Shown here: positions 10,355 through 39,657 of the stretch, piece by piece
How the letters are laid out: each line of letters starts with the position of its first letter
Numbering within the stretch: position 1 is the first letter of the stretch
Source of the DNA: Candidatus Desantisbacteria bacterium
Lineage (GTDB): Bacteria > UBA9089 > CG2-30-40-21
Length of the DNA stretch: 42,945 nucleotides
Direction: 5' to 3'
Assembly (NCBI GenBank): GCA_043806395.1
Contig: JAZDHC010000039.1
Location: forward strand, 1 to 42,945
Program-made: the position numbers and the translations under genes
The notes under the pieces: generated by a model
What the model saw: the letters and a program-made list of their open reading frames with translations, nothing else
The model's database searches: none
Told to the model about the DNA's origin: nothing

Positions 10355-10390
10355 AACATTCACCTTCTTTTAGGAACATATAAAAGGCAA

Positions 10391-10463
10391 TTAGACTGTA
10401 GACTGTCAGGCTGTAGGTAAAGACGAATAACCTATAGCCTATAGCCTATAGCCTATAGCCTAA
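10391..10463. repeat. Hairpin with heptamer-unit arms (GCTGTAG / CCTATAG x4) between rplK and rplA
   Basis: TTAGACTGTAGACTGTCAGGCTGTAGG .. loop .. CCTATAGCCTATAGCCTATAGCCTATAGCCTAA. The arms are imperfect reverse complements, and the right arm is a 4-unit tandem heptamer. Confidence 0.75.
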
Positions 10464-10464
10464 A

Positions 10465-11905: not shown

Positions 11906-11981
11906 TGGCAGGCCCGACAGGACTCGAACCTGCAACCCTCGGTTTTGGAGACCGATGCTCTACCAATTGAGCCACAGGCCT
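11906..11981 (-). tRNA. trnW: tRNA-Trp (anticodon CCA), CCA end encoded
   Basis: Reverse complement AGGCCTGTGGCTCAATTGGTAGAGCATCGGTCTCCAAAACCGAGGGTTGCAGGTTCGAGTCCTGTCGGGCCTGCCA folds by hand into a cloverleaf. It has a 7-bp acceptor, GCTC/GAGC D stem, TCGGT/ACCGA anticodon stem, CUCCAAA loop and TTCGAGT T-loop. Confidence 0.95.
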
Positions 11982-12132
11982 ACTTTGTTTCTTTATGAAC
12001 AGTATGTGCCTGACAAAATGGACAGTACTTCTTTAATTCCATTTTTGCAGTCTGTTTCTTTTTATTTCTTGTTGTATTATAATTTCGTCTCTTACAGTCT
12101 GAACATGCAAGAATAACCATTTCTCTTGACAA
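11980..12132 (-). CDS. rpmG: 50S ribosomal protein L33 (not in the ORF track, below the length cut-off)
   Basis: Hand translation: (M)[49 protein letters not shown], with CxxC..CxxC L33 zinc-ribbon spacing. TTG at 12132 has GAGGG 6 nt upstream; the alternative ATG is at 12120. Stop TAG at 11980-11982. Confidence 0.88.
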
Positions 12133-12155
12133 TTTTATCCCTCACTTAAATATTA

Positions 12156-12293
12156 CTACTTAGGTATATAGACTGTAGGTGTTTAGGTTGTAGGGTAAAG
12201 AAACAGAAACAGAAACACGGAATTATTAATGCAACACATCTGAAAAACTAACAGCCTACAGCCTAATTGTCTACAGCCTAACTACCTGAGTAG
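12156..12293. repeat. Long hairpin, CTGTAGG/CCTACAG-unit family, in the rpmG leader
   Basis: CTACTTAGGTATATAGACTGTAGGTGTTTAGGTTGTAGGGTAAAGAAACAGAAACAGAAACACGGAATTATT .. AACAGCCTACAGCCTAATTGTCTACAGCCTAACTACCTGAGTAG. Same family and loop core as 13816-13935 and the partial copy at 22345-22400. Confidence 0.8.
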
Positions 12294-12307
12294 TTACGAA
12301 AGATCAT

Positions 12308-12336
12308 AGTATATCATGAAATTCATACGATGTCAA
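12308..12336 (-). promoter_or_regulatory. Sigma-70-type promoter upstream of rpmG / tRNA-Trp / secE
   Basis: Minus strand reads TTGACA - 17 nt - TATACT. Confidence 0.55.
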
Positions 12337-12376: not shown

Positions 12377-13099
12377 CTACATCTCTGTTAATCTAATCTT
12401 TCCCCAAACACCCATCTTATCATCTTTAATAATCACAACACCCAAAACACCATCAATTTCTTGTACACGACTTAATCCTTCAGGGATATCTGCATGTGTT
12501 TGAATAATATTGCCTATTTTTGTGGCTACAGCATCAGCCAATGGGGTAGATTCAGATACGACTACACAGGCATCAGCCTTTCCAAAACTGATAGAATGAC
12601 CAACCGTACCTGAGGATGTACAAACACCCCATCTGCCTGGTTCAAGTAAAATCGCCATCCTTCCAGAAAGCACGGATGAACCAGCTAATATCCCAATCTT
12701 TCTTGATATGCTTGTATTCAGAAAGATATCCCCACCATTTTCAACAATGATGTCCTCAGAAAAGGCTAATAAATCCATTCCTACAGCATCAGCAACAACC
12801 CCGGCTACAGCAGCCATGGGACCAACCCCTGCCATTGCTGAGGCATCACTCATTTGACGAATAATCAATGGTGCTTTCCCTGAAACCAGATATGGAGAAA
12901 AGGTATGACCAAATTCAGGACACTGTTGGATATATCTTTTAATGGTTAAATAATGCCTTTTCAGAGAATCATATGCCTGTTTTTCAAGCATGGTTCTGGC
13001 TGAAATAAAAAGATCACTCTCAAAATAAACTACCCTGAAACTAATTAATGAGGTGTCTTTTCTTAAAAAATCCTGACGGTACTTCCTCTCCTCATACAC
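12377..13099 (-). CDS. UPF0280 family protein (ApbE-like fold)
   Basis: 240 aa. The motifs ..ASAMAGVGPMAAVAGVVADAVG.., ..IVENGGDIF.. and ..TSSGTVGHSISFGKADA.. fit my recollection of the UPF0280 family. Not verified by search. Confidence 0.6.
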   Translation of the reverse strand: MYEERKYRQDFLRKDTSLISFRVVYFESDLFISARTMLEKQAYDSLKRHYLTIKRYIQQCPEFGHTFSPYLVSGKAPLIIRQMSDASAMAGVGPMAAVAGVVADAVGMDLLAFSEDIIVENGGDIFLNTSISRKIGILAGSSVLSGRMAILLEPGRWGVCTSSGTVGHSISFGKADACVVVSESTPLADAVATKIGNIIQTHADIPEGLSRVQEIDGVLGVVIIKDDKMGVWGKIRLTEM

Positions 13100-13170: not shown

Positions 13171-13199
13171 ATCATATCATACTATCTTGCTTTTGTCAA
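13171..13199 (-). promoter_or_regulatory. Sigma-70-type promoter for the UPF0280 gene
   Basis: Minus strand reads TTGACA - 17 nt - TATGAT, about 70 nt upstream of the start codon. Confidence 0.5.
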
Positions 13200-13382: not shown

Positions 13383-13527
13383 ACAATAATAAATCATTGA
13401 TATGAATGTCAATAGGTAGTAACTTGGGTTAACTACTTAGGTTGCGTTATGTTACGCAACCTAAAGCTTACAGCTATCAAGTAAACACCAGATAACTGAG
13501 GCATTATCTAACATTCTTTGCTCTTCT

Positions 13528-13573
13528 CCCTACAGTCTAAATGCCTACAGCCTATCTACCTGATCAGTTACGA
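13528..13573. repeat. Solo right arm of the CTGTAGG/CCTACAG hairpin family
   Basis: CCCTACAGTCTAAATGCCTACAGCCTATCTACCTGATCAGTTACGA matches the right arms at 12250-12299 and 13905-13941, but no left arm is present. Confidence 0.5.
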
Positions 13574-13788: not shown

Positions 13789-13817
13789 TTGACTTTAATT
13801 GTAAATTATGTTAAACT
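13789..13817 (+). promoter_or_regulatory. Sigma-70-type promoter for the CDF transporter / mqnA unit
   Basis: TTGACT - 17 nt - TAAACT. The -10 abuts or overlaps the first bases of the hairpin repeat at 13816. Confidence 0.5.
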
Positions 13818-13935
13818 ACTCAGGTGTTTAGACTGAAGGCTGTTAAACTGTAGGGTAAAGAAGCAGAAACAGGAGAATTATTGATGTAGTTCGCGTCTTT
13901 CAAACTAACAGCCTTCAGCCTAAACACCTGAGTAG
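13816..13935. repeat. Long hairpin, CTGTAGG/CCTACAG-unit family, in the CDF gene leader
   Basis: CTACTCAGGTGTTTAGACTGAAGGCTGTTAAACTGTAGGGTAAAGAAGCAGAAACAGGAGAATTATT .. AACAGCCTTCAGCCTAAACACCTGAGTAG. The 11-bp termini are perfect inverted repeats. Confidence 0.8.
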
Positions 13936-13970
13936 TTACGATATAATATCCTCCTGGAGGGCTAAAAGCG

Positions 13971-14930
13971 ATGTCTGAGCAAAAGCAAAAGACTACAGTC
14001 ATTATCTTTTCTGTGGTTTCTAACAGCATTCTGGTGATATTGAAACTATTGGTTGGTTGGCTAACCGGATCCATCTCTATTCTTTCCGAATCCGTTCATT
14101 CAGGAATCGATTTGCTGGCTGCTCTAATTGCTTTTTTTGCAGTGAGAAATTCTGGGAAACCTGCGGATGAAAAACATCCATTCGGACACGATAAGATTGA
14201 AAATATTTCAGGGTTTGTAGAAGCTATGCTTATCTTCATGGCAGCAGGATGGATTATTTATGAAGCCGTTAAAAAATTAATCAATCCTGCACCATTGGAG
14301 GCATTGGTCTGGGGTATGGCAGTGATGCTGTTCTCATCGGTGATAAATATCATTGTTTCGAAACGGCTCTTTAAGATTGGTCGTAAAACCGAGTCCATGG
14401 CGATTCAGGCAGATGCCTGTCATTTGCAGATGGATGTCTGGACTTCCATAGGGGTAATGACTGGGTTAGGACTCATCTGGGTAAGTGAGACTCTTTGGAA
14501 AGGTATGCATTTTCATTGGATTGACCCAATAGCTGCAATCGTAGTCGCTGTATTAATTATTAAGGCTGCCTATGACTTGACCCATCAATCAATTCATGAT
14601 CTGTTAGACAGCAGCCTGACAGCTGATGAGATCGAACACATTCGTATCAATATCATGGCGTATTGCCCCCAGATCCATGGTTTTCATCGACTCCGCACAC
14701 GAAAAGCAGGGAAGAATCGTTTTATAGAATTTCACTTGAAGGTAAAAAGCGATATGACGGTTGAGAAATCCCACCACTTAACAACTATAATTACTGAAAA
14801 AATTCAAGAACAAATACCATGTGCAAATGTCAATATTCACATTGAACCATGCAGACAGGAATATTGTAGTGATATCTGCATAAAAGGCTGCTTACTGACC
14901 CCGGAAAAGCGGGATAAAAAACATCTTTAG
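13971..14930 (+). CDS. Cation diffusion facilitator (CDF) family metal efflux transporter
   Basis: 319 aa with six predicted TM segments, HSGIDLL (TM2) and HLQMDVW (TM5) metal-site motifs and a C-terminal cytoplasmic domain. Confidence 0.85.
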   Translation: MSEQKQKTTVIIFSVVSNSILVILKLLVGWLTGSISILSESVHSGIDLLAALIAFFAVRNSGKPADEKHPFGHDKIENISGFVEAMLIFMAAGWIIYEAVKKLINPAPLEALVWGMAVMLFSSVINIIVSKRLFKIGRKTESMAIQADACHLQMDVWTSIGVMTGLGLIWVSETLWKGMHFHWIDPIAAIVVAVLIIKAAYDLTHQSIHDLLDSSLTADEIEHIRINIMAYCPQIHGFHRLRTRKAGKNRFIEFHLKVKSDMTVEKSHHLTTIITEKIQEQIPCANVNIHIEPCRQEYCSDICIKGCLLTPEKRDKKHL

Positions 14931-20821: not shown

Positions 20822-20842
20822 TTGTCTTCTCCTTTTGTAATT

Positions 20843-20990
20843 ATTCACCGCAGAGACACAGAGGCACAGAGAGGGAAATATGGGATGTGTCCCTGCATTT
20901 CCCCTGCATTTCCCTTGCATTTCCCTATCTGTGAAATCTGTGAAATCTGTGTAATCTGTGGATATATTCTTCTCTGTGCCTCTGTGGTAA
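20843..20990. repeat. ORF-less hairpin, CGCAGAG-unit family, with internal 11-nt and 9-nt tandem units
   Basis: ATTCACCGCAGAGACACAGAGGCACAGAGAG .. CCTGCATTTCC x3 .. ATCTGTGAA x3 .. TTCTCTGTGCCTCTGTGGTAAA. Confidence 0.8.
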
Positions 20991-21668: not shown

Positions 21669-22343
21669 ATGCAAAAACTACAAGGTACGATTGAAGATAT
21701 TAAAAAACATCCCTTAACAAATGCTTACATAAAAGGATCAGATGAAAATCTTGATGTTCTTGGTTATACAGAGCATGGGATACGACATGCTACTATTGTT
21801 TCTCAAAATGCTGCTAAGATTATATCCAAATTGTGGTATGATTCAAGGCTTGTGGAGTTAGCAGAGATAGCTGGATACTTGCATGATATTGGAAATGTGG
21901 TTAATCGAAAGGGGCATAGTGTTTCAGGTGCCTTGCTTGCTGTGGAAATTCTCAAAGGTTTGAGATTTCCTGAAAATGAGATAGCCGCCATTATTCGGGC
22001 AATAGGCAACCATGATGAGGAAGAGGGTGGGGAGCCTGTAAGCAATCTTGCAGCAGCAGTTATTCTGGCAGATAAGGCTGATATTCATAGAAGTCGGGTC
22101 AGAAATTCCAATATGATTACCTTTGATATCCATGATCGGGTCAACTATGCTGCTACCTATTCCTCTGTTGATGCCGATGCTGACTCAAAGATAATCTTCT
22201 TGAATCTAACCATTGATACCCAGGTCTCTCAGATAATGGAGTATTTTGAAATATTCTTATCCAGAATGATGATTTGCCGCAAGGCAGCTGTGTTTTTGAA
22301 TTGTAAGTTTGAGATTTTAGTCAATGATATCAGGTTGTTGTAA
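21669..22343 (+). CDS. HD-domain phosphohydrolase
   Basis: H..HD..D pattern (..HGIRHATIV.., ..GYLHDIGN.., ..IGNHDEEEG.., ..LADKAD..). Preferred ATG at 21669 with AGGAGA 9 nt upstream. Confidence 0.7.
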   Translation: MQKLQGTIEDIKKHPLTNAYIKGSDENLDVLGYTEHGIRHATIVSQNAAKIISKLWYDSRLVELAEIAGYLHDIGNVVNRKGHSVSGALLAVEILKGLRFPENEIAAIIRAIGNHDEEEGGEPVSNLAAAVILADKADIHRSRVRNSNMITFDIHDRVNYAATYSSVDADADSKIIFLNLTIDTQVSQIMEYFEIFLSRMMICRKAAVFLNCKFEILVNDIRLL

Positions 22344-22401
22344 CTATTCAGGTAGATAGGCTGTAGGGTAATGAAGCAGAAACACGGAATTGAGGTGCCC
22401 T

Positions 22402-23010: not shown

Positions 23011-23955
23011 TTAAGGTCTCCACTGATATTCAAGGCAGGGTGATTTCAGGAATGAAGAGCCTTTGAAAAGGGCAGTTGGGTTAGAACCTTCTACTAAAGT
23101 TTTGAGCCATTGCAAAGGCTCTTCTTCTTCTATAATTACTGGTTCACCCTTAATCCCTGCTAATTTAGCAGTTATGGCTATAGTTTGCTGATAGTCTCCA
23201 ATCTCATCTATTAATCCAGCTTTTTTCGCCTGGCGACCAGTAAATATTCTACCATCAGCCAATTCTCTTAATCTATCCTCCGGCATATTTTGTCTTCCCA
23301 TTTTTACTGCTTGATAAAATTGCTGATAGGCATCATCAATGACCCCTTGAAGCAACATTCTTTCTTCTTCTGTCATTGGTCTTGACATGGAGCCAATATC
23401 CTTATGTTGACCACTTTTTATTACCCGAAAGTTTACCCCAACCTTTTCCAGAAGCCCTGATATCTCTGGCAGATGCATGATCACACCAATTGAACCAACC
23501 AGACTCCCTTCATCAGCTACTATCTTGTCTGCACTACTGGCAATATAATATCCCCCGGAGGCACAAATATCACCAATAGAGACAACTACCTTTTTGTGCT
23601 GTTTTTTTAATTCCTTTATCTGATTATAAATCTCCTGAGTAGCAGCTACTGTTCCACCAGGGCTGTTTATTCGCAAGATTACAGCCTTGACCAATGGATC
23701 GCGACTTAATGCTGCTAATTTTTTTACAATTCCATCTGCATCCTTAGCCGATGCTCCCCATGCATTCCCTGCTTGACTTTGAAATGAAATCTCCCCATAT
23801 ATTCGTACTACTGCAATCTTTTTTTGTGAGACAATGGCTGAAACAATCCCATTTTGTTTTTTTGTGCCATGAGAAAATACCATACATATTCCAATAATAA
23901 TGGCTACAAGGCAAAAAATAAGTATCCCGCCACCAATCAAGTTTTCTTTTTTCAT
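23011..23955 (-). CDS. sppA: Signal peptide peptidase SppA, 36K type (S49 family)
   Basis: ..RINSPGGTVAAT.., ..GDICASGGYYIAS.. and ..GSIGV.. motifs. Preferred ATG at 23955 (MKKENLIGGGILIF.. TM anchor) with GGAGGAG 7 nt upstream. Confidence 0.88.
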   Translation of the reverse strand: MKKENLIGGGILIFCLVAIIIGICMVFSHGTKKQNGIVSAIVSQKKIAVVRIYGEISFQSQAGNAWGASAKDADGIVKKLAALSRDPLVKAVILRINSPGGTVAATQEIYNQIKELKKQHKKVVVSIGDICASGGYYIASSADKIVADEGSLVGSIGVIMHLPEISGLLEKVGVNFRVIKSGQHKDIGSMSRPMTEEERMLLQGVIDDAYQQFYQAVKMGRQNMPEDRLRELADGRIFTGRQAKKAGLIDEIGDYQQTIAITAKLAGIKGEPVIIEEEEPLQWLKTLVEGSNPTALFKGSSFLKSPCLEYQWRP

Positions 23956-23966
23956 TATCAGTCTCC

Positions 23967-24280
<314 letters not shown>

Positions 24281-24287
24281 CTCCCGT

Positions 24288-24316
24288 AGTATATCATCAA
24301 TAAGCAGGGATGTCAA
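24288..24316 (-). promoter_or_regulatory. Sigma-70-type promoter directly upstream of the heptamer array and sppA
   Basis: Minus strand reads TTGACA - 17 nt - TATACT. The predicted start site falls at the first array unit (~24281). Confidence 0.55.
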
Positions 24317-26690: not shown

Positions 26691-27590
26691 ATGAAATTAC
26701 ATTTATGGCTAACATGTATGCTGATAAGTCTGTGTTGTCTGACAACTAATGTCTGTGCATCAGAGCCTCGGATAGCTATTGTTATCTCTCGGCAGATACA
26801 GCCTTATATGGCCGTTGTCCGGGAGATTAAGGCAGGAGTAAACGCTGTCTTTTACGAATACAACCTGAATGGGGACAAGAGGAATATTCAGAAAATCATC
26901 GCAGAGATTTTGTCCAAAAATCCTGATATTATTGTGGCTATTGGGACAGAAGCTGCTGATGGCTGTTGCGGTAAGACCGAGGGTATACCAACAATCTTCA
27001 GCATGGTGTTGAATCCCTATATTCTCAAGCTCAATATGAGCGGGGTGGCTCTGGATATCTCAGCCAAAGCCCAGATATTGACATTACGAAAGATATTGCC
27101 AAAGGCTAAAAAGATAGGGGTTATCTATAATCCCGCAGTCTCTGCCTCTTTAATCGCTCAAGCCCAAAAAGAAAACATCTCCATTGTTGCCTCTCCTGTG
27201 AAATCTGAATCGCAGATTGCACCTGCCTTAAAGAATATGCTTGATCAGGGCAGAATAGATGCCTTCTGGCTTATTCCTGACCCAATGGTTGCCAATCAAT
27301 CAATTGCCCGGTATATCTTAGAGACAACCCTGAAGGCTAATGTTCCGGTTTTTGCCCCATCCCCGGCATTTGTGAAGAATGGTGCGTTATTCTCGGTTTC
27401 AGCTTGTTATGACCGGATTGGCAAGCAGACGGTCAAACTTATTGGGCAAATATTGACTAATGGTAATACTCGAATATTTATAGAAGAGCCGGAAGATCCG
27501 ATTTTAACGATTAATCTTAAGACGGCTGAATTGCTGAATATTGTTATTCCGGATCAGGTGAAGAATTTAGCTGATGAAACGATTGAATAA
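26691..27590 (+). CDS. ABC-transporter-type periplasmic substrate-binding protein (ABC_sub_bind-like)
   Basis: 299 aa with a signal peptide and a two-lobe PBP-like pattern (..KKIGVIYNP.., ..DAFWLIPDP..). Sits directly upstream of a histidine kinase. GGAGGA RBS. Confidence 0.6.
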   Translation: MKLHLWLTCMLISLCCLTTNVCASEPRIAIVISRQIQPYMAVVREIKAGVNAVFYEYNLNGDKRNIQKIIAEILSKNPDIIVAIGTEAADGCCGKTEGIPTIFSMVLNPYILKLNMSGVALDISAKAQILTLRKILPKAKKIGVIYNPAVSASLIAQAQKENISIVASPVKSESQIAPALKNMLDQGRIDAFWLIPDPMVANQSIARYILETTLKANVPVFAPSPAFVKNGALFSVSACYDRIGKQTVKLIGQILTNGNTRIFIEEPEDPILTINLKTAELLNIVIPDQVKNLADETIE

Positions 27591-27595
27591 AAGAT

Positions 27596-28045
27596 ATTCA
27601 CCGCAGAGACGCAGAGGCACAGAGAATATATGGGAATAAATCAGATAACAGAGAAAATTATTGGCGCAGCAATTGAAATACATAGGACATTGTGTCCAGG
27701 TTTATTAGAATCTGCTTACGAAGAATGCTTATGTTATGAGCTATCTATGGCAGGTCTACATTTCAGAAGACAAGTTGAATTGCCTGTGATATATAAGGGC
27801 ATTAAATTAGATTGTGGCTATCGAATGGATATTCTTATTGAAGAAAAAGTTGTGGCAGAATTAAAAACAGTGGAAAAATTACTACCAATTCATGAGGCTC
27901 AACTTTTAACCTACCTAAAAATGATGGATAAAAGGATAGGCTTGTTGATTAATTTTAATGTTTCTGTTCTCAAGGATGGAATTAAACGCATAGCACATAA
28001 CTTTTGAATTTTCTCTCTCTGTGTCTCTGCGTCTCTGCGGTGAAT
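27596..28045 (+). mobile_element. 450-bp cassette: GxxExxY gene flanked by ~30-bp terminal inverted repeats of the CGCAGAG hairpin family
   Basis: Left ATTCACCGCAGAGACGCAGAGGCACAGAGA (27596-27625) versus the reverse complement of the right end ATTCACCGCAGAGACGCAGAGACACAGAGA (28045-28016) gives 29/30 identity by hand. Confidence 0.65.
27630..28007 (+). CDS. GxxExxY family protein (PD-(D/E)xK nuclease-like, PDDEXK_3)
   Basis: 125 aa, ..[25 protein letters not shown].. (GLLESAY = GxxExxY) and ..[13 protein letters not shown].. (D..ExK). No recognisable SD. Confidence 0.8.
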
Positions 28046-28066
28046 ATTTACTTTATGAGGTGTATC

Positions 28067-37778: not shown

Positions 37779-37807
37779 TTGACAAAAGGCAGGATTTGGG
37801 GTAAAAT
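37779..37807 (+). promoter_or_regulatory. Sigma-70-type promoter for hslU
   Basis: TTGACA - 17 nt - TAAAAT. Its -35 and the divergent -35 form the palindrome TGTCAAGA-ATTA-TCTTGACA (37765-37784). Confidence 0.55.
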
Positions 37808-37832
37808 TGTTGGGAAAGGTAGGCGAACAAGG

Positions 37833-37939
37833 AAGGCTGTAGGCTGTAGGTTAGGAAAGGGAAGGATATGGGATAAATAATCTGTCTTCTGCCTTTCTCC
37901 TTCCTACCTACAGCCTATAGCCTAATAGCCTACAGCCTT
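37833..37939. repeat. Long hairpin (GCTGTAG / CCTACAG units, GGAAGGGAAGGATATGGGATAA loop family) in the hslU leader
   Basis: AAGGCTGTAGGCTGTAGGTTAGGAAAGGGAAGGATATGGGATAAATAATCTGTCTTCTGCCTTTCTCCTTCCTACCTACAGCCTATAGCCTAATAGCCTACAGCCTT. Confidence 0.8.
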
Positions 37940-37965
37940 AATTAAAACCCCGAGGTGAAAGATAA

Positions 37966-39330
37966 ATGCAAGATTTAACCCCCAGAGAGATTGTCAGTGA
38001 ACTTGACAAATACATTATTGGTCAGGATAAAGCCAAAAAGGCAGTAGCTATTGCCTTAAGAAACCGTATCCGAAGACAAAGGTTAGCAGAAGAGTTGAGG
38101 GAAGAGGTTTCTCCGAAAAATATTATCATGATTGGTCCCACGGGTGTGGGTAAAACAGAGATTGCGCGAAGGCTTTCTAATTTAGCCAATGTCCCATTTC
38201 TCAAGATAGAGGCAACAAAATTTACAGAAGTAGGTTATGTTGGTCGGGATGTGGAGTCAATGGTGCGGGACCTTACCACTATGACGGTAAATTTAGTTAA
38301 GCAGGATGCTATGAAAAAGATAGAGAAAGAGGCTCTGGACATGGTTGAGGAAAAAATCTTAGATATTCTCTTGCCTTTACCAAAGACAAAGAAGAAGAAA
38401 AAATCTGATACAGAAGAAGTGGATATTGCTGCACAGGAAGTGGAAAAGATTCAAAATAGTCGTGAAAAACTACGGAAAAAACTACAGCAAGGTAATTTGG
38501 AAAATAGAATGATAGAGATAGATACTAAGGATACCTCTATGCCTATGTTTGAGATATTTGCTGGAAGTGGAATGGAAGGGCTTGATATGGGGCTGTCTGA
38601 TGCCTTAAGCACGATGCTGCCGCAAAAGGTTAAGAAAAGAAAGGTGACTGTTGTAGAGGCTCGTAGAATCCTGATCAATGAGGAATCACAAAAATTAATT
38701 GATATGGAAGATATCCTTAAGGATGCCATTAACCGCATAGAAAACCAGGGGATTATCTTTTTGGATGAATTGGATAAGGTGGTCAGTACAGGATCCCGAA
38801 CAGGTGGACCAGATGTTTCCCGTGAGGGTGTTCAACGGGATTTATTGCCTATTGTTGAGGGAACTACTGTTACTACCCGTTATGGGCCGGTCAGAACAAA
38901 TCATATCCTCTTTATTGCTGCTGGAACATTTCATGATGCAAAACCAGCAGACATGATCCCGGAATTACAGGGAAGGTTTCCTATCAGGGTAGAACTCTCT
39001 TCATTGGTAAGGGAGGATTTTATCCAGATATTGACCGAGCCACGAAATGCTATTATTAAACAATATGTGGCTTTGCTTGGAACTGAGGGGGTTGAGCTAC
39101 AGTTTAAGGAAGATGCTATACATGAGATTGCTTCCCTTGCCGCTACTGTTAACGAAAATACTGAAGATATTGGAGCAAGAAGACTTCATACTATTATGGA
39201 AAAGGTGGTTGAGAATATCTCCTTTGAAACCCCACCCCGCACAGGAACGGTTATTATTGATGCTGAATATGTGCGGTCTATGTTAAATGAGATTATTAAG
39301 GATAAGGATTTGAGCAGGTATATATTGTGA
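37966..39330 (+). CDS. hslU: ATP-dependent protease ATPase subunit HslU
   Basis: 454 aa, [34 protein letters not shown].., Walker A GPTGVGKT and the I-domain insertion. GAGGTG RBS. Confidence 0.96.
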
Positions 39331-39338
39331 GGGGGAAA

Positions 39339-39657
39339 GGCTTTTAGTCTGAAGGCTGAAGGTAGGAAGGGAAGGATATGGGATAATATGGTTCTATCAC
39401 GATTTGTGTGGGTAAATAAGAGATAGGTTTATCGCTTTCATTCCACACCAGAGTATGTCATCTGGAGGTATTTCTACTTCCATGTGCGGGGGTTAAATGT
39501 ATACTTTGGAGTAGTTAAAGCGATAAACCTTCTTCAATACATATTAAGAATGTTCTGTAAGGTTGATAAAGAACCAACTTTATCTTACCCACACAAATCG
39601 TAATAGAGCCGATAATATTTCCTGCCTTTTTCCCTCATACCTTCAGCCTAAAAGCCT
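39339..39657. repeat. Hairpin of the same family as 37833-37939, interrupted in its loop by a MITE
   Basis: GGCTTTTAGTCTGAAGGCTGAAGGTAGGAAGGGAAGGATATGGGATAATAT [insert] GATAATATTTCCTGCCTTTTTCCCTCATACCTTCAGCCTAAAAGCC. Confidence 0.8.
39390..39610. mobile_element. 221-bp MITE-like element with ~26-bp terminal inverted repeats and an 8-bp target-site duplication
   Basis: Left end GGTTCTATCACGATTTGTGTGGGTAA versus the reverse complement of the right end GGCTCTATTACGATTTGTGTGGGTAA (24/26). Flanked by GATAATAT at 39382-39389 and 39611-39618. Internal second inverted repeat GGTTTATCGCTTT / AAAGCGATAAACC. No ORF. Confidence 0.8.

Follow-up and report, generated by a model that had tools for sequence, protein, structure and literature searches.

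MITEs and a heptamer array in short 5' leaders: a promoter-repeat-ribosome-binding-site layout in Candidatus Desantisbacteria as a probable by-product of repeat accumulation

ISDge4 of Deinococcus geothermalis, a member of the ISBst12 group, terminates in GTGACTACTCAGCA and GTAACTGCTCAGCA and is accompanied by a direct repeat of 8 bp (PMC12898284). The Correia elements of Neisseria (CREE/NEMIS) are abundant hairpin-forming MITEs that often lie between a promoter and its gene, as one does after the mtrCDE promoter; they are co-transcribed, so that the mRNA contains long stems (PMC10969869, PMC2649163). ERIC/IRU and RUP/BOX/SPRITE are likewise small, dispersed, palindromic repeats of transcribed intergenic DNA whose presence varies among relatives. 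Repeats of seven nucleotides are found as the STRR of cyanobacteria and as G-rich heptamers in Xanthomonas and Nostoc.

Here we examined a window of 42,945 nucleotides, namely contig C39 (JAZDHC010000039.1) of a 2.73-Mb, 330-contig metagenome-assembled genome of Candidatus Desantisbacteria with 40% GC. A preliminary description had picked out by hand four loci (rpmG, a CDF gene, sppA and hslU), each with a promoter followed by a long repeat and a ribosome-binding site. We recovered all of these sites at the same positions, and each repeat does end shortly before the Shine-Dalgarno sequence (SD), with a gap of 12-20 nt at all four loci. The gene identities hold as well, with Pfam matches to L33, Cation_efflux, Peptidase_S49 and an HslU-type AAA protein. 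The promoters had been called near-consensus, which is true of rpmG, sppA and hslU (11/12 each); the CDF site reaches 9/12 only. A scan of the four loci revealed no further promoter-like site between repeat and start codon. Genes (ORF-based, 2326 genome-wide) and promoters are simple predictions throughout, and the repeats below are classed by their sequence.

12308..12336, minus strand: promoter of the rpmG operon, TTGACA-17(TG)-TATACT, 11/12 and TG-extended
12152..12297: ISBst12-type MITE of 146 bp in the rpmG leader, its hairpin body made of GGCTGTAGG heptamers
12130..12145, minus strand: rpmG SD (GAGGGA) and TTG start; CDS 11980-12132, Pfam Ribosomal_L33 7e-23
13789..13817, plus strand: weak promoter-like site before the CDF gene, TTGACT-17(TG)-TAAACT, 9/12 and TG-extended
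13812..13939: ISBst12-type MITE of 128 bp with TIRs TAAACTACTCAG / CTGAGTAGTTAC, upstream of the CDF gene
13953..13973, plus strand: CDF SD (GGAGGG) and ATG (13971); CDS 13971-14930, Pfam Cation_efflux 1.8e-52 and ZT_dimer
24288..24316, minus strand: sppA promoter, TTGACA-17(TG)-TATACT, 11/12
About 23967..24280, minus strand: array of ~45 heptamers in the sppA leader, reading TGGGAGT/TGAGAGT on the mRNA strand
23953..23970, minus strand: sppA SD (GGAGGAG) and ATG; CDS 23011-23955, Pfam Peptidase_S49 2e-50
37779..37807, plus strand: hslU promoter, TTGACA-17-TAAAAT, 11/12
37831..37939: hairpin of ~110 nt with GGCTGTAGG-heptamer arms, in the hslU leader
37951..37968, plus strand: hslU SD (GAGGTG) and ATG (37966); HslU-type AAA Pfam match

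The four repeats fall into three classes, MITEs at rpmG and CDF, a hairpin without termini at hslU and a heptamer microsatellite at sppA. Thus, no single element is shared by the four loci. The rpmG and CDF hairpins are bounded by the 12-bp motif GTAACTACTCAG, inverted at both ends. Exact copies of this motif number 145 genome-wide, against 0.13 expected from shuffled 12-mers; at one mismatch or less there are 251, against 8 for shuffled 12-mers, and 21 of the 251 lie in called genes. Conservation breaks off abruptly where the TIR begins, at its first G, and the outer 16 nt are AT-rich only. We found 78 inverted TIR pairs of up to 450 bp in the genome, 112-300 bp long with a mode near 203 bp, and perfect 8-bp target duplications flank 22 of 58 clean pairs. 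At least six body families, unrelated to each other, share this one terminus, and most are built of tandem units of 7-9 nt that form hairpin arms. Within the window, the paired termini (GTAACTACTCAG / CTGAGTAGTTAC) are present at 12152-12297, 13429-13571 and 13812-13939 and absent from the sppA array and the hslU hairpin, at whose ends no GTAACTACTCAG terminus is recognisable. The rpmG MITE has an exact TIR on the promoter side (12286-12297) and a degenerate one on the gene side (12152-12163, ATTACTACTTAG), and both the rpmG and the CDF copies have lost their target duplications. These elements have TIRs and a target duplication of fixed length, are small, non-coding and multi-copy as MITEs of the ISBst12 group are, and occur at orthologous sites that are empty in some genomes and filled in others. 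The TIR pairs and 8-bp duplications identify the rpmG and CDF hairpins as true MITEs, belonging to the IS66 family and within it to the ISBst12 group. In practice, the 12-bp GTAACTACTCAG offers a simple annotation signature for the repeat load of these genomes.

The termini found here, GTAACTACTCAG(C/G)N, are near-identical to those of ISDge4, beginning with GTAA and accompanied by the same 8-bp direct repeat (PMC12898284). Furthermore, a congener carries a 1737-bp element (G002:C86, 485-2221) that has the same TIRs and one ORF of 522 aa, which matches DDE_Tnp_IS66 (PF03050, 1.5e-40) and DUF6444; zf-IS66 stays below threshold, at 24.8 bits against a cut-off of 27.3. This is the layout of the ISBst12 group, the IS66-family members with one ORF, and the MITEs are mobilised in trans by such a single-ORF transposase of the IS66 type. 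The congener's element, inserted within a methyltransferase-like ORF, lacks a clean target duplication and is richer in GC (52.5%) than its flanks (37%); the insertion sequence may be a recent import. When we looked for an autonomous copy in the source genome, TIR pairs 0.45-3 kb apart had no target duplication, and the sole IS66-like match, on C132, is a truncated remnant without a TIR and with 40% identity. The elements differ from described ISBst12-group MITEs in that their source genome holds no intact assembled transposase, in that one terminus heads many unrelated bodies of the heptamer type, and in their very high, phylum-wide copy number. Exact copies of GTAACTACTCAG number 140-205 in each of four genomes, two from the same genus and two from another family, and 30-45 in two further genomes of the phylum; six genomes outside the phylum have none.

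In their abundance, their hairpins and their frequent place between promoter and gene, the elements resemble Correia elements, and the closest parallel to their position in leaders is the Correia copy that follows the mtrCDE promoter. However, Correia elements have their own promoters, an IHF site, a TA target duplication and proven RNase III cleavage, whereas the elements described here, known from sequence and predicted folds, have an 8-bp duplication and are depleted of promoters. Strong promoters occur at 0.36 per kb in the repeats and at 1.08 per kb in unique spacer DNA, and the profile upstream of the TIRs likewise gives no sign of element-borne sigma-70 promoters of the Correia kind. 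ERIC/IRU and RUP/BOX/SPRITE differ in their termini and mobilising enzymes, those families not being derived from IS66. The heptanucleotide repeats named above find a counterpart in the sppA array and in the hairpin arms built of 7-nt units; the array, which lacks termini and target duplication, is grouped with the MITEs by position only. We conclude that the elements represent a familiar kind of event, MITEs of the ISBst12/IS66 type, and no new regulatory design. What is unusual is the load and spread of the repeats, with one 12-bp terminus, many heptamer-built bodies and a third of the intergenic DNA.

We examined whether the promoters or the repeats are older by comparing the loci among congeners. 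The rpmG promoter is kept in all six genomes of the genus, and in four congeners (G001, G002, G003 and G005) the leader is empty, with ~30 nt from the promoter and then the SD. The source genome (G000) and its sister G004 (G004:C111) each have a MITE that begins exactly 10 nt past the rpmG -10, and the two bodies are unrelated. The G004 copy keeps its 8-bp target duplication, GATTTTCT; in the source genome this copy is gone, together with the last 3 nt of the TIR. Replacement of the body and an insertion hot spot both fit the shared nucleotide.

Likewise, the hslU promoter is kept in six of six congeners, while its leader is empty in G001 and G003, contains a TIR-MITE with target duplication in G005 and a half MITE in G002, and in G004 (G004:C115) holds the inner small hairpin alone. 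The sequences upstream of hslU in two genomes of the GTDB scan are those of G002 and G003 and do not count as independent evidence. The inner hairpin (AGGAAAGGGAAGG...CCTTTCTCCTTCCT) is common to the source genome and G004, and GGCTGTAGG heptamers have been added symmetrically on both arms in the source genome only. The hslU hairpin may be a decayed relative of the MITEs or a composite drawn from the same repeat pool.

The sppA promoter is kept in all four congeners that have the gene, and the array is restricted to the source genome; leaders without it measure 35-55 nt in G004, G001 and G002. Having neither TIR nor target duplication, the array is a microsatellite and probably grew by slippage. 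Each of its heptamers carries, on the mRNA strand (UGGGAGU/UGAGAGU), an SD-like GGAG or GAGAG, so that the sppA leader would show ~45 SD-like sites before the real SD.

Filled and empty versions of one site were also seen at two leaders outside the window, which brings to four (rpmG, hslU, C7 and C22) those with such a pattern across the six congeners. On G000:C7 a recent MITE insertion has the duplication GAAATTTC, and the site is empty in G004, G001 and G003. On G000:C22 (11065-11111) a solo terminus, GTAACTACTCAGCA, separates a perfect promoter from the SD; G004 (G004:C191) keeps this terminus though the DNA upstream is wholly different, and the same leader holds a small MITE in G001 and is empty in G002 and G003. 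The conservation of the promoters and the empty leaders of some congeners show that rpmG, hslU and sppA have ancestral promoters of the sigma-70 type, once ~30-55 nt before the start codon, and that the repeats were inserted later.

The CDF locus has a different history. Its promoter-like site is not conserved in the congeners compared (G004 and G005). In G005 the CDF gene has its own promoter, TTGACT-17-TATAAT, without a MITE, and in G004 (G004:C238) an HD-domain gene lies 30 nt upstream of it. In the source genome the HD-domain and CDF genes are 8 kb apart, the CDF gene adjoining the MITE at 13812-13939 and the HD-domain gene the half MITE at 22340-22391. This split of a pair that is adjacent in G004 points to a rearrangement that separated the two genes, each breakpoint being marked by a MITE copy. 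The TAA stop of the HD-domain gene falls within the TIR's GTAAC. At the CDF gene, the -10 TAAACT overlaps the TIR of the MITE, being its mutated end, and the TTGACT 17 nt upstream comes from flanking DNA; the 9/12 site is at best a junction promoter.

That the elements form mRNA leaders of 100-330 nt, as had been proposed, is therefore well supported where the promoter is ancestral (rpmG, hslU and sppA), support from which the CDF locus is excluded. rpmG is the first gene of an rpmG-tRNA-Trp-secE-nusG cluster in which we found no other promoter, so transcription very probably passes through the MITE. A scan of the leaders found no terminator-like sites. RNA folding predicts long stems of -49.3 (rpmG), -47.4 (CDF) and -64.2 kcal/mol (hslU), with z-scores of -4.05, -3.08 and -5.8, respectively, and in each case the SD lies outside the main stem. 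Such elements would be read through and tolerated, and housekeeping operons of this uncultured phylum would be expressed via hairpin leaders of 110-320 nt. We also considered a known cis-regulatory leader RNA (riboswitch, ribosomal-protein leader or T-box) and rejected it, since a scan of the whole window at Rfam gathering thresholds returned tRNA-Trp only and the leaders match no curated RNA family.

We suspect, with good though not complete confidence, that the promoter-repeat-ribosome-binding-site layout arose as a by-product when mobile repeats and repeats prone to slippage built up in short, older 5' leaders, and that it is not a designed module. MITEs would insert in AT-rich intergenic DNA with an 8-bp duplication, and copies striking a promoter, an SD or a gene would be lost. 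A surviving insert would have to fall in the few tens of nucleotides between promoter and SD; sparing both, it would begin ~0-25 nt from the start site and end just before the SD. Insertions in leaders would be tolerated as self-contained hairpins that leave the SD free and have no terminator-like U-tract, and a tolerated, terminator-free insert would be transcribed by default as a long structured leader. The sppA array would have reached the same position by slippage. An effect on RNA stability or processing, if any, would be a side-effect and not the cause of the layout. This account puts a phylum-wide MITE superfamily of the ISBst12/IS66 type and a microsatellite, set in short ancestral leaders of essential genes, in place of a speculative promoter-repeat-ribosome-binding-site module.

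The four loci were hand-picked, and the same window holds copies in other contexts, including one more between convergent genes (39338-39657).

13429..13571: MITE of 143 bp (TTAACTACTTAG / CTGATCAGTTAC), on the upstream side of the gene 12377-13099 and of its strong promoter (13199..13171, minus strand)
22340..22391: half MITE (GTAACTATTCAGGT...), between convergent genes, at the rearrangement breakpoint
10385..10464: heptamer hairpin, within the rplK-rplA junction

Genome-wide, repeats make up 35% of intergenic base pairs, with 723 multi-copy blocks in 1609 gene-gene spacers, and half of the upstream regions of at least 40 nt contain a repeat block. Tandem spacers have 4.2 blocks per kb of unique DNA, divergent ones 2.5 and convergent ones 4.5; these per-class densities led us to reject an association with promoter-bearing spacers. 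Counting strong promoters (at least 11/12, outside repeat blocks), the order promoter-element-gene occurs 48 times, against 49.1 expected from uniform insertion into the pre-insertion spacer, and element-promoter-gene 87 times. Recent insertions, those with perfect duplications, occur in every intergenic context, including gaps of 7-30 nt between operon genes. In genomes so saturated with repeats, geometry alone can produce recurring layouts, and readers of similar loci should be warned accordingly.

The strongest competitor, which we nevertheless regard as unlikely, is that the ISBst12-type transposase prefers the AT-rich or melted initiation zone (about -10 to +20), making the layout a matter of target choice. 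Inward strong promoters (at least 10/12) lie within 30 nt of 12 of 123 TIR ends, against 5.1 +/- 2.3 expected at AT-matched unique intergenic positions (P about 0.01), and with promoters of at least 11/12 the same test gives 8 against 2.6 +/- 1.6. MITE ends are thus modestly, 2.4-3 fold, enriched just after strong -10 boxes, a figure that speaks for target choice and against the by-product reading. Consecutive 10-nt bins before the TIR contain 12, 6 and 0 inward promoters, which puts 18 within 0-19 nt, against a flat ~2 per bin for outward-facing ones. Across 25 genomes of the phylum, an exact TTGACA-N16-18-TANNNT is followed by an exact TIR after gaps of 0-14, 15-29 and 30-44 nt in 16, 6 and 2 cases, declining with distance; the 0-14 nt cases come from five genomes of three families. 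One target duplication, GATATAAT (C314), is the -10 box itself. The rpmG site of G000 and G004, struck at the same nucleotide and filled by two unrelated bodies in sister genomes, likewise counts for target choice and against a mere by-product, and the different inserts that several congeners hold in the hslU and C22 leaders could mark a hot spot.

Against target choice, the duplications range from -8 to +32 relative to the -10, which leaves no fixed docking distance, and 16 of 22 recent insertions lie away from promoters, only ~6 of the 22 being at or just behind one. Convergent spacers are equally dense in repeats, and the frequency of the promoter-element-gene order equals the uniform expectation. 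Furthermore, survivorship in compact spacers would yield the same enrichment. In spacers free of repeats, a median of 43 nt separates the -10 from the start, and leader geometry predicts shares of ~0.47, 0.34 and 0.20 for the successive distance classes; the observed skew toward the shortest distances, with its lean to the first 10 nt, departs from this only marginally (p 0.04-0.16), and geometry alone fits only marginally. Short-leader geometry explains most of the promoter-proximal enrichment. Docking at a fixed distance was considered and rejected, given the variable positions of the duplications and the absence of a peak of outward-facing promoters at any distance up to 130 nt from the TIR.

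On the preference for sites downstream of promoters raised in the preliminary description, the TIR-end excess lends weak support, and the uniform order counts, the convergent density and leader geometry weigh against it. What stands is a modest, testable bias of the elements toward transcription start regions. In a stronger form, which we hold slightly less likely still, the transposase would home to active sigma-70 initiation zones (about -10 to +20), and MITEs would repeatedly become the 5'-terminal hairpins of housekeeping mRNAs. If so, the rpmG, hslU and C22 leaders would have been struck repeatedly in sister species, and MITE traffic would be a systematic source of structured leaders across Desantisbacteria.

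Improbable by comparison is the recruitment of the elements as leader structures, in which the hairpins would be kept as 5'-terminal stem-loops or RNase III sites that tune mRNA stability or translation. The predicted stems are long and stable, would begin 0-5 nt past the presumed 5' end and would not occlude the SD; expression of these housekeeping genes has to proceed through the element, and there is a precedent in the Correia element downstream of the mtrCDE promoter, which is cleaved by RNase III (PMC10969869, PMC2649163). However, the inserts are lineage-specific and interchangeable, with empty sites in 2-4 congeners and different bodies in sisters, the same elements also lie at 3' ends and operon junctions, and there is no sequence conservation beyond the TIR. 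Recruitment is disfavoured, since congeners vary both in whether they have an insert and in its sequence.

Least credible of all is that the element supplies all or part of the downstream gene's promoter: the CDF -10, made from a mutated TIR end with the flanking TTGACT and a TG extension, at a gene that needed a new promoter once rearrangement had removed the HD-domain context still seen in G004, is what speaks for it, and this site is 9/12 only, the TIRs have no conserved -35/-10 at a set distance, repeats contain a third as many strong promoters per kb as unique spacer DNA, and three of the four promoters are older than the elements. The earlier idea that elements carry the promoter thus survives only in the TIR-derived -10 of CDF, the other three promoters being present in element-free congeners. 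We also compared the promoters abutting TIRs for shared ancestry and rejected it; their spacers are unrelated and only the consensus hexamers are common to them.

Two minor observations concern other repeats. Multi-copy sequences with strong promoters occur on G000 C6, C66, C129, C135, C177 and other contigs; these promoter-bearing repeats, including TTGACAGGCTATGGATGAAAGGGTATAAT (4-5 copies) and TTCACAATTTATGCCCTCGCTGAGTATAAT (4 copies), are unrelated to the TIR elements. In the window, CGCAGAG hairpins at 20835-20990 and 27588-28053 end in degenerate forms of the GTAACTACTCAG terminus, GTAATTATTCACC and GGTGAATATTTAC, that resemble the genome's GTAACTACTCACCACAGAG MITE families, and this resemblance suggests that one of the two, a cassette with a small nuclease gene, may be an ISBst12-type MITE with a passenger gene.
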